A stretch of DNA of 64,000 bases from Escherichia coli (GTDB lineage Bacteria > Pseudomonadota > Gammaproteobacteria > Enterobacterales > Enterobacteriaceae). Positions 45,701 through 51,700 of the stretch are shown here, piece after piece. A program made the position numbers. Each line of letters begins with the position of its first letter. The first letter of the stretch is position 1. The stretch lies in assembly GCF_041886205.1 (NCBI RefSeq), contig NZ_CP169029.1. One strand, 5' to 3'.

Positions 45701-48700
45701 CAAATGGCTATCTTTTTTCAGTAGCAGTTGCCCGTTGATCGGTTGTTGATATTCCTTTTCCAACCGTTTTTGCATAGCCGGAATGGCAACCAGTTCTGAT
45801 TCAATAATCCCCCCAGTGGCAGCAGTTTCAGGAAATGCTTTTGCCAGATAGGGTGCAAAACGAGATAAGCGCGCATGGGCGTCCTGAACATCCTGTTCGG
45901 TCAGGCCAACATAAGGTAAACCTTCAGCCAATGAGGTCGTGCCAGGATTAAACCAGGTGGTTTCTTTAAGAGCAACCAGATCCTTTACCAACGGATACTG
46001 GGCGATGAGCGAGTTCATTTTAGCGTTTTCCATAGTACGTCTCTTTGCGCTTAGATGATAAATGACAGCAGGAATGTGCCCGCCAGAGCGACGACTGAAG
46101 CGATAAATGTCGCTGTCGTATAGTATTTAAATGTTTCATTGAGCGTAGCGCCGCAATATTGCTTCACCAGCCAGAAAAGCGAGTCCGTAACGATCGTGCA
46201 GCCAATCGCACCTGAACCGATAGCAATCGTAAAAATTTCCGGGCTGATGTCGGGATACAGCGGCAGCACAATGATCCATATTTATATTTTCTTCTCCAGA
46301 TTGGCGATGCCAGTTGGCATGTTTTACCTACTTGACTACATGGTTACTCGTTGGCGAGAACAGAGGCGGAATTGGGTACAATTGTCCGGGAATTATTGTT
46401 ATTTTTTATTGTATTGCCGTGTCGGGTGATAGGGCGTCGAGAATATCGTTGGATCTCGCCAGTGACGTCTGTTTCTGCTACAGTGCCCGTTTTACGGCAA
46501 ACGGCTTGGGTATGGCTTCATTAAAGGATGTCGCACGCCTGGCGGGAGTGTCGATGATGACAGTCTCCCGGGTGATGCATAATGCAGAATCTGTGCGTCC
46601 TGCAACGCGTAACCGCGTATTGCAGGCAATCCAGACCCTGAATTATGTTCCTGATCTTTCCGCCCGTAAGATGCGCGCTCAAGGACGTAAGCCGTCGACT
46701 CTCGCCGTGCTGGCGCAGGACACGGCCACCACTCCTTTCTCTGTTGATATTCTGCTTGCCATTGAGCAAACCGCCAGCGAGTTTGGCTGGAATAGTTTTT
46801 TAATCAATATTTTTTCTGAAGATGACGCTGCCCGCGCGGCACGTCAGCTGCTTGCCCACCGTCCGGATGGCATTATCTATACTACAATGGGGCTGCGACA
46901 TATCACGCTGCCTGAGCCTCTGTATGGTGAAAATATTGTATTGGCGAACTGTGTGGCGGATGACCCAGCGTTACCCAGTTATATCCCTGATGATTACACT
47001 GCACAATATGAATCAACACAGCATTTGCTCGCGGCGGGCTATCGTCAACCGTTATGCTTCTGGCTACCGGAAAGTGCGTTGGCAACAGGGTATCGTCGGC
47101 AGGGATTTGAGCAGGCCTGGCGTGATGCTGGACGAGATCTGGCTGAGGTGAAACAATTTCACATGGCAACAGGTGATGATCACTACACCGATCTCGCAAG
47201 TTTACTCAATGACCACTTCAAATCGGGCAAACCAGATTTTGATGTTCTGATATGTGGTAACGATCGCGCAGCCTTTGTGGCTTATCAGGTTCTTCTGGCG
47301 AAGGGGGTACGAATCCCGCAGGATGTCGCCGTAATGGGCTTTGATAATCTGGTTGGCGTCGGGCATCTGTTTTTACCGCCACTGACCACAATTCAGCTTC
47401 CACATGACATTATCGGGCGGGAAGCTGCATTGCATATTATTGAAGGTCGTGAAGGGGGAAGAGTGACGCGGATCCCTTGCCCGCTGTTGATCCGTTGTTC
47501 CACCTGATATTATGTTAACCCAGTAGCCAGAGTGCTCCATGTTGCAGCACAGCCACTCCGTGGGAGGCATAAAGCGACAGTTCCCGTTCTTCTGGCTGCG
47601 GATAGATTCGACTACTCATCACCGCTTCCCCGTCGTTAATAAATACTTCCACGGATGATGTATCGATAAATATCCTTAGGGCGAGCGTGTCACGCTGCGG
47701 GAGGGGAATACTACGGTAGCCGTCTAAATTCTCGTGTGGGTAATACCGCCACAAAACAAGTCGCTCAGATTGGTTATCAATATACAGCCGCATTCCAGTG
47801 CCGAGCTGTAATCCGTAATGTTCGGCATCACTGTTCTTCAGCGCCCACTGCAACTGAATCTCAACTGCTTGCGCGTTTTCCTGCAAAACATATTTATTGC
47901 TGATTGTGCGGGGAGAGACAGATTGATGCTGCTGGCGTAACGACTCAGCTTCGTGTACCGGGCGTTGTAGAAGTTTGCCATTGCTTTCTGATAGCTCGCG
48001 CGCCAGCGTCATGCAGCCTGCCCATCCTTCACGTTTTGAGGGCATTGGCGATTCCCACATATCCATCCAGCCGATAACAATACGCCGACCATCCTTCGCT
48101 AAAAAGCTTTGTGGTGCATAAAAGTCATGCCCGTTATCAAGTTCAGTAAAATGCCCGGATTGTGCAAAAAGTCGTCCTGGCGACCACATTCCGGGTATTA
48201 CGCCACTTTGAAAGCGATTTCGGTAACTGTATCCCTCAGCATTCATTCCCTGCGGGGAAAACATCAGATAATGCTGATCGCCAAGGCTGAAAAAGTCCGG
48301 ACATTCCCACATATAGCTTTCACCCGCATCAGCGTGGGCCAGTACGCGATCGAAGGTCCATTCACGCAATGAACTGCCGCGATAAAGCAGGATCTGCCCC
48401 GTGTTGCCTGGATCTTTCGCCCCGACTACCATCCACCATGTGTCGGCTTCACGCCACACTTTAGGATCGCGGAAGTGCATGATTCCTTCTGGTGGAGTGA
48501 GGATCACACCCTGTTTCTCGAAATGAATACCATCCCGACTGGTAGCCAGACATTGTACTTCGCGAATTGCATCGTCATTACCTGCACCATCGAGCCAGAC
48601 GTGTCCGGTGTAGATAAGTGAGAGGACACCATTGTCATCGACAGCACTACCTGAAAAACACCCGTCTTTGTCATTATCGTCTCCTGGCGCTAGCGCAATA

Positions 48701-51700
48701 GGCTCATGCTGCCAGTGAATCATATCGTCGCTGGTGGCATGTCCCCAGTGCATTGGTCCCCAGTGTTCGCTCATCGGGTGATGTTGATAAAACGCGTGAT
48801 AACGATCGTTAAACCAGATCAGGCCGTTTGGATCGTTCATCCATCCGGCAGGAGGCGCGAGGTGAAAATGGGGATAGAAAGTGTTACCCCGGTGCTCATG
48901 AAGTTTTGCTAGTGCGTTTTGCGCCGCATGCAATCGAGTTTGCGTCATTTTAATCATCCAGGTTAAGCAAATTTGGTGAATTGTTAACGTTAACTTTTAT
49001 AAAAATAAAGTCCCTTACTTTCATAAATGCGATAAACATCACAAATGTTAACGTTAACTATGACGTTTTGTGATCGAATATGCATGTTTTAGTAAATCCA
49101 TGACGATTTTGCGAAAAAGAGGTTTATCACTATGCGTAAGTCAGATGAATTTAAGGGAAAAAAATGTCAGCCAAAGTATGGGTTTTAGGGGATGCGGTCG
49201 TAGATCTCTTGCCAGAATCAGACGGGCGGCTACTGCCTTGTCCTGGCGGCGCGCCAGCTAACGTTGCGGTGGGAATCGCCAGATTAGGCGGAATAAGTGG
49301 GTTTATAGGTCGGGTCGGTGATGATCCTTTTGGGGCGTTAATGCAAAGAACGCTGCTAACTGAGGGAGTCGATATCACGTATCTGAAGCAAGATGAATGG
49401 CACCGGACATCCACGGTGCTTGTCGATCTGAACGATCAAGGGGAACGTTCATTTACGTTTATGGTCCGCCCCAGTGCCGATCTTTTTTTAGAGACGACAG
49501 ACTTGCCCTGCTGGCGACATGGCGAATGGTTACATCTCTGTTCAATTGCGTTGTCTGCCGAGCCTTCGCGTACCAGCGCATTTACTGCGATGACGGCGAT
49601 CCGGCATGCCGGAGGTTTTGTCAGCTTCGATCCTAATATTCGTGAAGATCTATGGCAAGACGAGCATTTGCTCCGCTTGTGTTTGCGGCAGGCGCTACAA
49701 CTGGCGGATGTCGTCAAGCTCTCGGAAGAAGAATGGCGACTTATCAGTGGAAAAACACAGAACGATCGGGATATATGCGCCCTGGCAAAAGAGTATGAGA
49801 TCGCCATGCTGTTGGTGACTAAAGGTGCAGAAGGTGTGGTGGTCTGTTATCGAGGACAAGTTCACCATTTTGCTGGAATGTCTGTGAATTGTGTCGATAG
49901 CACGGGGGCGGGAGATGCGTTCGTTGCCGGGTTACTCACAGGTCTGTCCTCTACGGGATTATCTACAGATGAGAGAGAAATGCGACGAATTATCGATCTC
50001 GCTCAACGTTGCGGAGCGCTTGCAGTAACGGCGAAAGGGGCAATGACAGCGCTGCCATGTCGACAAGAACTGGAATAGTGAGAAGTAAACGGCGAAGTCG
50101 CTCTTATCTCTAAATAGGACGTGAATTTTTTAACGACAGGCAGGTAATTATGGCACTGAATATTCCATTCAGAAATGCGTACTATCGTTTTGCATCCAGT
50201 TACTCATTTCTCTTTTTTATTTCCTGGTCGCTGTGGTGGTCGTTATACGCTATTTGGCTGAAAGGACATCTAGGGTTGACAGGGACGGAATTAGGTACAC
50301 TTTATTCGGTCAACCAGTTTACCAGCATTCTATTTATGATGTTCTACGGCATCGTTCAGGATAAACTCGGTCTGAAGAAACCGCTCATCTGGTGTATGAG
50401 TTTCATCCTGGTCTTGACCGGACCGTTTATGATTTACGTTTATGAACCGTTACTGCAAAGCAATTTTTCTGTAGGTCTAATTCTGGGGGCGCTCTTTTTT
50501 GGCCTGGGGTATCTGGCGGGATGCGGTTTGCTTGACAGCTTCACCGAAAAAATGGCGCGAAATTTTCATTTCGAATATGGAACAGCGCGCGCCTGGGGAT
50601 CTTTTGGCTATGCTATTGGCGCGTTCTTTGCCGGCATATTTTTTAGTATCAGTCCCCATATCAACTTCTGGTTGGTCTCGCTATTTGGCGCTGTATTTAT
50701 GATGATCAACATGTGTTTTAAAGATAAGGATCACCAGTGCGTAGCGGCGGATGCGGGAGGGGTAAAAAAAGAGGATTTTATCGCAGTTTTCAAGGATCGA
50801 AACTTCTGGGTTTTCGTCATATTTATTGTGGGGACGTGGTCTTTCTATAACATTTTTGATCAACAACTTTTTCCTGTCTTTTATGCAGGTTTATTCGAAT
50901 CACACGATGTAGGAACGCGCCTGTATGGTTATCTCAACTCATTCCAGGTGGTACTCGAAGCGCTATGCATGGCGATTATTCCTTTCTTTGTGAATCGGGT
51001 AGGGCCAAAAAATGCATTACTTATCGGTGTTGTGATTATGGCGTTGCGTATCCTTTCCTGCGCGCTGTTCGTTAACCCCTGGATTATTTCATTAGTGAAG
51101 CTGTTACATGCCATTGAGGTTCCACTTTGTGTCATATCCGTCTTCAAATACAGCGTGGCAAACTTTGATAAGCGCCTGTCGTCGACGATCTTTCTGATTG
51201 GTTTTCAAATTGCCAGTTCGCTTGGGATTGTGCTGCTTTCAACGCCGACTGGGATACTCTTTGACCACGCAGGCTACCAGACAGTTTTCTTCGCAATTTC
51301 GGGTATTGTCTGCCTGATGTTGCTATTTGGCATTTTCTTCCTGAGTAAAAAACGCGAGCAAATAGTTATGGAAACGCCTGTACCTTCAGCAATATAGACG
51401 TAAACTTTTCCGGTTGTTGTCGATATCTCCCTATCCCTCAACCGGAAAATAATAATACTAAAGTGCTTAGCCCTGCTAATAATCACCTAATCCAAACGCC
51501 TCATTCATGTTCTGGTACAGTCGCTCAAATGTACTTCAGATGCGCGGTTCGCTGATTTCCAGGACATTGTCGTCATTCAGCGACCTGTCCCGTGTATCAC
51601 GGTCCTGCGAATTCATCAAGGAATGCATTGCGGAGTGAAGTATCGAGTCACGCCATATTTCGCTATCAGGATTCTGTGTGATGGTTACATCGCCCGGCCC

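Follow-up and report, generated by a model that had tools for sequence, protein, structure and literature searches.

The stretch analyzed here, referred to below as the window, comprises 64,000 nucleotides of Escherichia coli DNA (NCBI RefSeq assembly GCF_041886205.1, contig NZ_CP169029.1). It carries the sucrose-catabolism genes cscR, cscA, cscK, and cscB in the place of the D-serine genes dsdC and the 5′ part of dsdX, directly upstream of a short dsdX 3′ remnant and an intact dsdA. With a probability of roughly 95%, the locus is the csc regulon that is standard for the E. coli chromosome, at its usual site between argW and dsdA. The arrangement is already known and ordinary, being found in about half of complete E. 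coli genomes, and the replacement of dsdC and dsdX by csc has been described earlier (PMC4366372, PMC7486766, PMC3032704, PMC11251922).

The csc module

Gene order was taken from an open reading frame (ORF) listing of window positions 43000–55000, and families were assigned by NCBIfam profile scans with curated cut-offs. The order was emrY (+), dsdA (−), a 72-codon ORF (−), cscR (+), cscA (−), cscK (+), and cscB (+), with cscR and cscA convergent and cscA and cscKB divergent (Table 1). The initial annotation had placed the four csc genes upstream of a 72-codon dsdX stump, and its coordinates, strands, and names were all correct.

Table 1. Features of the csc/dsd locus and of its surroundings in the window (aa, amino acids; a dot marks features given no strand).
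Feature	Position	Strand	Basis or remark
Transposase ORF of the IS903-type element in emrK, 322 aa	41590–42558		
emrY	43059–44597	+	ORF listing
dsdA, D-serine ammonia-lyase, 442 aa, intact	44705–46033	−	TIGR02035 (809 bits) and NF002823, both above cut-off
dsdX 3′ remnant, 72 codons/219 bp, pseudogene fragment	46051–46269	−	DsdX residues 374–445 and stop
Left breakpoint	46268/46269	.	dsdX homology to K-12 up to 46268; csc-module sequence from 46269
csc-module leader, 242 bp, breakpoint to cscR start	46270–46511	+	Kept in all csc+ genomes compared
cscR, LacI-family repressor, 331 aa, intact	46512–47507	+	Full-length LacI-family matches; near-identity to characterized CscR
cscA, GH32 sucrose hydrolase (invertase), 477 aa	47515–48948	−	TIGR01322, 479.7 bits (cut-off 356.4)
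Divergent cscA/cscKB control region	48949–49163	.	Palindromic operator TGTTAACGTTAACT in two identical copies
cscK, fructokinase, 304 aa, intact	49164–50078	+	NF006957 equivalog, 505.7 bits (cut-off 450)
cscB, LacY-like sucrose:H+ symporter, 415 aa, intact	50150–51397	+	TIGR00882, 593.6 bits (cut-off 220)
argW-proximal tail of the csc module, 439 bp	51398–51836	.	Decayed DUF4942 gene fragment
Microhomology AGGGTAT, 7 bp, at the 5607-bp deletion relative to wlxctx60	51830–51836	.	Alignment to wlxctx60
IS3-family OrfA fragment	51875–52237	−	
Autotransporter gene, 1165 aa, intact	53265–56762	−	
IS3 copy	57784–58955	+	
P4-type tyrosine integrase, 405 aa	60371–61588	−	Adjoins argW
argW, tRNA-Arg(CCU), far anchor of the variable argW–dsd island	61737–61811	−	ARAGORN, Rfam

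The four Csc proteins were full length, had no internal stops, and differed by 0–7 residues from the studied proteins of E. coli W and O157:H7. CscB was 100% identical to the protein of O157:H7 Sakai and had two substitutions relative to that of W; the TIGR00882 match spanned its residues 9–399 of 415. CscK had 2–3 substitutions relative to W and Sakai, and CscA had a single one, S4T, relative to W. An alternative upstream ATG of cscA at position 48957 would extend the product to 480 amino acids. CscR differed at 3–4 positions from the Sakai and W proteins. No CscR-specific NCBIfam equivalog scored in the profile scan, and its assignment therefore rests on near-identity to characterized proteins. 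Translation of cscR truly starts at the ATG at 46512; the ORF lister gave the TTG at 46314 instead. In wlxctx60, one of the closest complete genomes and 100% identical over the csc DNA, the four genes are named cscR, cscA, cscK, and cscB by the NCBI Prokaryotic Genome Annotation Pipeline (PGAP), the first being annotated in RefSeq as 'sucrose operon repressor CscR' (WP_001491232.1).

Relative to both W and Sakai, the lineage of the window carried the substitutions D34N and S136P in CscR (N34 and P136 here; D34 and S136 in both reference strains), S4T in CscA, and T44I in CscK. Residue 34 lies within the N-terminal DNA-binding headpiece of LacI-family repressors. The exact alleles were found on 279 (CscR), 859 (CscA), and at least 1000 (CscK and CscB, each) public contigs; by these counts, they are common natural variants and not private lesions.

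Perfect TGTTAACGTTAACT palindromes were located at 48982–48995 and 49046–49059 in the control region between cscA and cscK, and the pattern had no further match in the 64-kb window. According to Jahreis 2002, as relayed in PMC11251922, the CscR operators are a 12-bp inverted repeat that occurs twice between cscA and cscK. The two palindromes correspond to these published operators. The cscR promoter is presumably located in the csc-module leader.

The dsdX remnant and the left breakpoint

In the blastn alignment with the argW–evgS region of K-12, the window was collinear through evgS, emrKY, and dsdA up to position 46268, which equals K-12 position 2478967 in dsdX codon 374. Past this point, K-12 homology was absent until 61736, where collinearity restarts beside argW. 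The deletion breakpoint that the initial annotation had expected relative to K-12 could thus be mapped to 46268/46269. In the ungapped junction alignment, K-12 reads CCC ATG CTG CCG and the window ATT GTG CTG CCG; the G at 46269 is a csc-side base, and K-12 has ATG there. The GTG 'start' was consequently made by the junction, and the 72-codon ORF is a pseudogene fragment rather than a gene.

The reading of the 72-residue product as the C-terminus of DsdX was borne out by both alignments: it matched positions 374–445 of 445 in the NCBIfam DsdX equivalog profile (E = 1e-41) and residues 374–446 of K-12 DsdX by tblastn (95.9% identity). The surviving portion of DsdX is residues 374/375–445. On identical sequence, PGAP calls 'GntT/GntP/DsdX family permease, incomplete, missing N-terminus'. 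Two adjacent non-synonymous changes in the remnant, I386F and A387T, were private to the lineage.

Neither dsdC nor the 5′ part of dsdX was present in the 64-kb window, where the sole match to DsdC was an unrelated LysR-family gene (28% identity). The junction (...ATATGGATCATTG/TGCTGCCGCTG..., the slash marking the breakpoint) was base-identical in the window, Sakai, W, enteropathogenic E. coli (EPEC) E2348/69, ERP001, and CRE78. Sakai, W, E2348/69, and three other csc+ genomes had the same gene order and the same 219-bp remnant. The initial annotation had likened the locus to that of O157:H7, in which csc replaces dsdC and 5′ dsdX; the Sakai junction and the published arrangement agree with this.

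The right boundary and argW

Collinear identity with Sakai, W, and wlxctx60 ended at exactly 51836 in all three. Directly past this position, Sakai and W carry TGGTGTCCCCTGCAG, which is the argW 3′ end in reverse complement and therefore marks attR, an attachment (att) site, of the argW prophages of these strains. The conserved csc module is accordingly 46269–51836 (5.57 kb) and fills the space from the argW attachment site to dsdX codon 374. The equivalent space in K-12 is 2.37 kb long and is taken up by dsdC, the control region, and 1120 nt from the 5′ end of dsdX.

Window positions 44000–51836 aligned with positions 11401–19237 of the wlxctx60 locus, and window positions 51830–53500 with its positions 24838–26508, the two blocks being joined at the microhomology given in Table 1. 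The DNA deleted relative to wlxctx60 comprises a degenerate argW att copy, an integrase fragment, genes for a YeeU-type antitoxin, DUF987, JAB, and antirestriction proteins, and the insertion sequences (IS) IS911 and IS30. The att copy that follows 51836 in Sakai and W is deleted in the window. A relic of the argW 3′ end was considered as a mark of the island boundary and rejected, as argW itself was the only exact match of at least 12 nt in the window, and the 20-mer of the argW 3′ end likewise had no other match in the window with up to four substitutions. At the Rfam gathering threshold, argW was the only hit over 41000–62500.

Distribution and origin of the arrangement

The junction probe (461 bp) was searched against 5426 complete E. 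coli genomes and counted where at least 80% of it was covered. The csc/dsdX junction was detected in 2658 of the 5426 genomes (O157:H7 Sakai, E. coli W, and EPEC E2348/69 among them), and the remaining genomes matched the probe only up to its position 169, equal to window position 46268. The dsdC gene and 5′ dsdX of K-12 were found in 2770 genomes, and a chimeric probe made of csc and dsdCX sequence in 5386. Set against the two separate counts, the latter number leaves about 40 genomes (approximately 1%) with both, and csc and dsdCX are thus nearly mutually exclusive.

According to the proposed history, a single ancestral event would have inserted the 5.57-kb csc segment, with the argW attachment site on one side of it and dsdX codon 374 on the other, in place of the 2.37 kb that in K-12 comprise dsdC, the dsdC–dsdX control region, and dsdX codons 1–373. 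The csc allele would then have been inherited vertically and swapped between lineages by homologous recombination in the flanks. One ancestral event is argued for by the base-identical junction in six csc+ genomes that belong to several distinct lineages. The alternative, that csc entered the argW–dsd interval independently in several lineages and deleted dsdC and part of dsdX each time, was also weighed. The argW gene is a documented hotspot of integration and recombination (PMC4366372, PMC11251922), and the DNA past the csc module differs in each of the genomes compared (Sakai has prophage Sp16, W a lambdoid prophage, and the window an IS-rich island), as repeated entry would allow. However, the remnant is 219 bp long in all six genomes with the identical junction, the junction probe is covered in 2658 genomes, and Sakai, W, and wlxctx60 also agree in the right end of the module (51836). 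Separate illegitimate events would not arrive at the same two ends each time, and repeated insertion is therefore rejected as extremely improbable.

The dsdA of the csc+ strain W is nucleotide-identical to that of the dsdCX+ strain K-12, and the W dsdX remnant also carries the synonymous variants of K-12. Both findings directly attest to recombination that crossed the csc/dsd boundary. Synonymous variants in the remnants of csc+ strains were more generally shared with the intact dsdX alleles of dsd+ strains. Together with the identity of W and K-12 dsdA, these shared variants indicate that recombination in the flanks accounts for the spread of the csc allele.

dsdA behind the remnant

The DsdA of the window was 98.2% identical to that of K-12 and retained the pyridoxal phosphate-binding lysine K118. 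The activator gene dsdC and the dsdX promoter have been lost from upstream of dsdA. Compared with K-12, W, and Sakai, the lineage of the window had four private substitutions in DsdA (S100N, C301F, R415H, and R442H), and the exact dsdA allele was found on 201 contigs. With these substitutions, the silent gene may be at an early stage of decay. The dsdA of EPEC E2348/69, a strain that shares the csc junction, carries an annotated frameshift, indicating that decay of the silent gene has started in at least one csc+ lineage. The ratio of non-synonymous to synonymous substitution rates (dN/dS) of dsdA between csc+ genomes was about 0.06–0.2.

A tentative reading, which we regard as possible but doubtful, is that the silent dsdA is retained by selection as a latent gene for D-serine detoxification, which would be switched on by small cscR deletions through read-through from the cscA promoter, and that csc/dsdCX is a balanced polymorphism shuffled at argW. 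The low dN/dS and the nucleotide identity between W and K-12 dsdA are in its favor, while the four private DsdA substitutions and the E2348/69 frameshift count against its strong form. If true, most of it has already been published (O'Boyle 2020, PMC7486766).

The remnant itself could also be maintained, because it is translated into a small membrane protein or because dsdA requires it as a cis element. All pairwise differences between the remnants of five csc+ genomes outside the window lineage were synonymous, the dN/dS of dsdA was low, and a dsdA promoter element lies 115 bp upstream of dsdA, i.e., inside the remnant (O'Boyle 2020, PMC7486766). The shared variants, however, also occur in the intact dsdX of dsd+ strains and were thus imported by recombination, and the private changes (three synonymous and two non-synonymous) are compatible with neutrality (binomial P about 0.11). 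The window lineage has the two adjacent amino acid changes, the apparent start codon is a chance product of the junction, PGAP calls a pseudogene, and dsdA is transcriptionally silent in wild-type enterohaemorrhagic E. coli (EHEC) (PMC7486766). After site-by-site comparison with five intact dsdX alleles, the remnant was rejected as a maintained coding sequence, and we consider maintenance in either form unlikely to a high degree.

Expected phenotype

In the csc pathway as known from the protein families, CscB would import sucrose together with a proton, CscA would hydrolyze it to glucose and fructose, and CscK would phosphorylate the fructose. CscR would bind the two operators between cscA and cscK and repress both divergent promoters until sucrose is plentiful. 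On the D-serine side, DsdC, the DsdC-dependent dsdX promoter, and the DsdX transporter are gone from the locus, which would leave the intact dsdA silent for want of its activator and promoter.

EHEC and EPEC with the csc locus grow on D-serine only when given dsdA in trans (Connolly 2015, PMC4366372). The system is non-functional without DsdC and dsdA is silent in wild-type EHEC, where deletions that remove cscR reactivate dsdA via read-through from the cscA promoter, and other promoters can be brought upstream as well (O'Boyle 2020, PMC7486766). E. coli W has the same insertion and has lost the use of D-serine (Archer 2011, PMC3032704). By analogy with these strains, the source strain of the window likely does not grow on D-serine, and sensitivity to D-serine is predicted from the EHEC, EPEC, and W data.

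For sucrose, the published record is mixed. Wild-type EHEC is able to grow on it (O'Boyle 2020, PMC7486766). In the survey of Stephens 2024 (PMC11251922), csc was present in 35–37% of isolates, and nearly all members of phylogroups B1, D, and E had it; csc-only isolates showed slow, very slow, or no growth on sucrose, and five csc+ isolates without the other sucrose locus, scr, were sucrose-negative, one with a cscB frameshift and four without a visible defect. Loss of cscR was the main adaptive mutation for fast growth of W on sucrose (Mohamed 2019, PMC6599523). As cscR is intact in the window, csc expression should be repressed at low sucrose. The source strain would be genetically competent for sucrose use, which would probably be inducible but slow or dependent on a threshold or concentration, not vigorous. 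Of the phenotype proposed in the initial annotation, sucrose-positive and D-serine-negative, the second half is a good inference; the first was put too strongly, given that growth of csc-only isolates is usually slow, very slow, or absent (PMC11251922), owing to repression of the genes by CscR.

Both expectations would change if the source strain held further genes for the same substrates. It might still use D-serine via a second intact dsdCXA elsewhere, as in many K1 strains: about 40 of the 5426 complete genomes appear to hold both csc and dsdC/5′ dsdX, and strains with both loci or with two dsd copies have been reported (Stephens 2024, PMC11251922; title of Moritz and Welch 2006). Opposed to this are the absence of dsdC and 5′ dsdX from the 64-kb window, the rarity of carrying both (approximately 1% overall), and the closest complete genomes. 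In wlxctx60 and 6EVA, which matched the 2.9 kb of probed csc DNA at 100% identity, the chimeric probe matched at one place and with its csc part only, and neither dsdC nor 5′ dsdX was found anywhere in the two complete genomes. The expectation of the initial annotation that no intact dsdX or dsdC occurs elsewhere thus held in the window and in these two relatives, and a second dsdCXA in the source strain is considered very unlikely.

No observation contradicts the genotype, but a few points weigh against taking the locus as an ordinary csc+/dsdCX− regulon. Elsewhere in its genome, the source strain may have an scr locus or a further copy of dsdCXA, as is known from K1 strains. The private changes D34N and S136P in CscR, T44I in CscK, and the four in DsdA may matter. 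The consensus promoter scan recognized no sigma-70-like site for cscR, cscA, or cscKB and returned fewer sites than in shuffled sequence; the scan is crude and its outcome uninformative. CRP-dependent promoters often match the consensus poorly.

Comparison with known systems

The csc regulon of E. coli EC3132 and W has reportedly been characterized by Bockmann 1992, Jahreis 2002, and Sabri 2013. The window resembles it in the four genes, their order and orientation, the two palindromic operators, and the position between argW and dsdA, with 1–4 residues different in the Csc proteins compared with W. Unlike the window, which has an IS-rich island with an autotransporter gene at this site, W has a lambdoid prophage at argW.

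The dsdCX truncation and csc substitution of O157:H7 EDL933 and Sakai is said to have been described in Moritz and Welch 2006, and it is also the subject of Connolly 2015 (PMC4366372) and O'Boyle 2020 (PMC7486766). The window shares with EDL933/Sakai the identical dsdX breakpoint, the 219-bp remnant, an intact dsdA, and a CscB that is 100% identical. Over positions 44000–51836, DNA identity was 98.5% to Sakai and 99.97% to wlxctx60, the range for wlxctx60 and 6EVA in this region being 99.97–100%, and the lineage of the window is not O157:H7. Unlike the window, Sakai carries prophage Sp16 in the interval from argW to csc.

With K-12, the window shares the flanks yfdC–argW and dsdA–emrYK–evgAS at 97.8–99.6% identity, but K-12 has dsdC, an intact dsdX, the CPS-53 prophage, and an intact emrK. 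The scr system of Klebsiella, pUR400, and B2 E. coli is similar in conferring sucrose use and in having a LacI-family repressor with paired operators (PMC11251922). It differs in uptake by the phosphotransferase system protein ScrA, in the sucrose-6-phosphate hydrolase ScrB, and in the porin ScrY; the genes are unrelated, growth is fast, and the chromosomal site is another one. No scrA, scrB, or scrY was found in the window.

The argW-proximal island and emrK

Positions 51837–61736 of the window form an IS-rich mosaic, which was at least 80% covered in just six complete genomes. On the other side of the locus, emrK (40830–43059) is split by a 1057-bp IS903-type element at 41558–42614, whose terminal inverted repeats are 33 nt long (GGCTTTGTTGAATAAATC...) and whose insertion left a 9-bp target duplication. 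An intact emrK in K-12 and in the otherwise near-identical wlxctx60 marks the insertion as recent and specific to this strain, and EmrKY is probably inactivated by it.

Significance of the locus

The locus is a textbook metabolic niche trade-off, in which csc+ strains gain low-affinity use of sucrose and lose the catabolism of D-serine. In attaching and effacing pathogens, this loss turns D-serine into a signal by which type III secretion is repressed. In EHEC, the locus owes its significance to a link with the locus of enterocyte effacement. For the window, the locus adds nothing new on mechanism or evolution and serves as a genotype marker that assigns the strain to the csc+/dsdCX− half of the species. 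Its practical value is the prediction of a D-serine-negative phenotype with slow or conditional growth on sucrose, and the intact cscR would matter if the strain were put on a sucrose feedstock.

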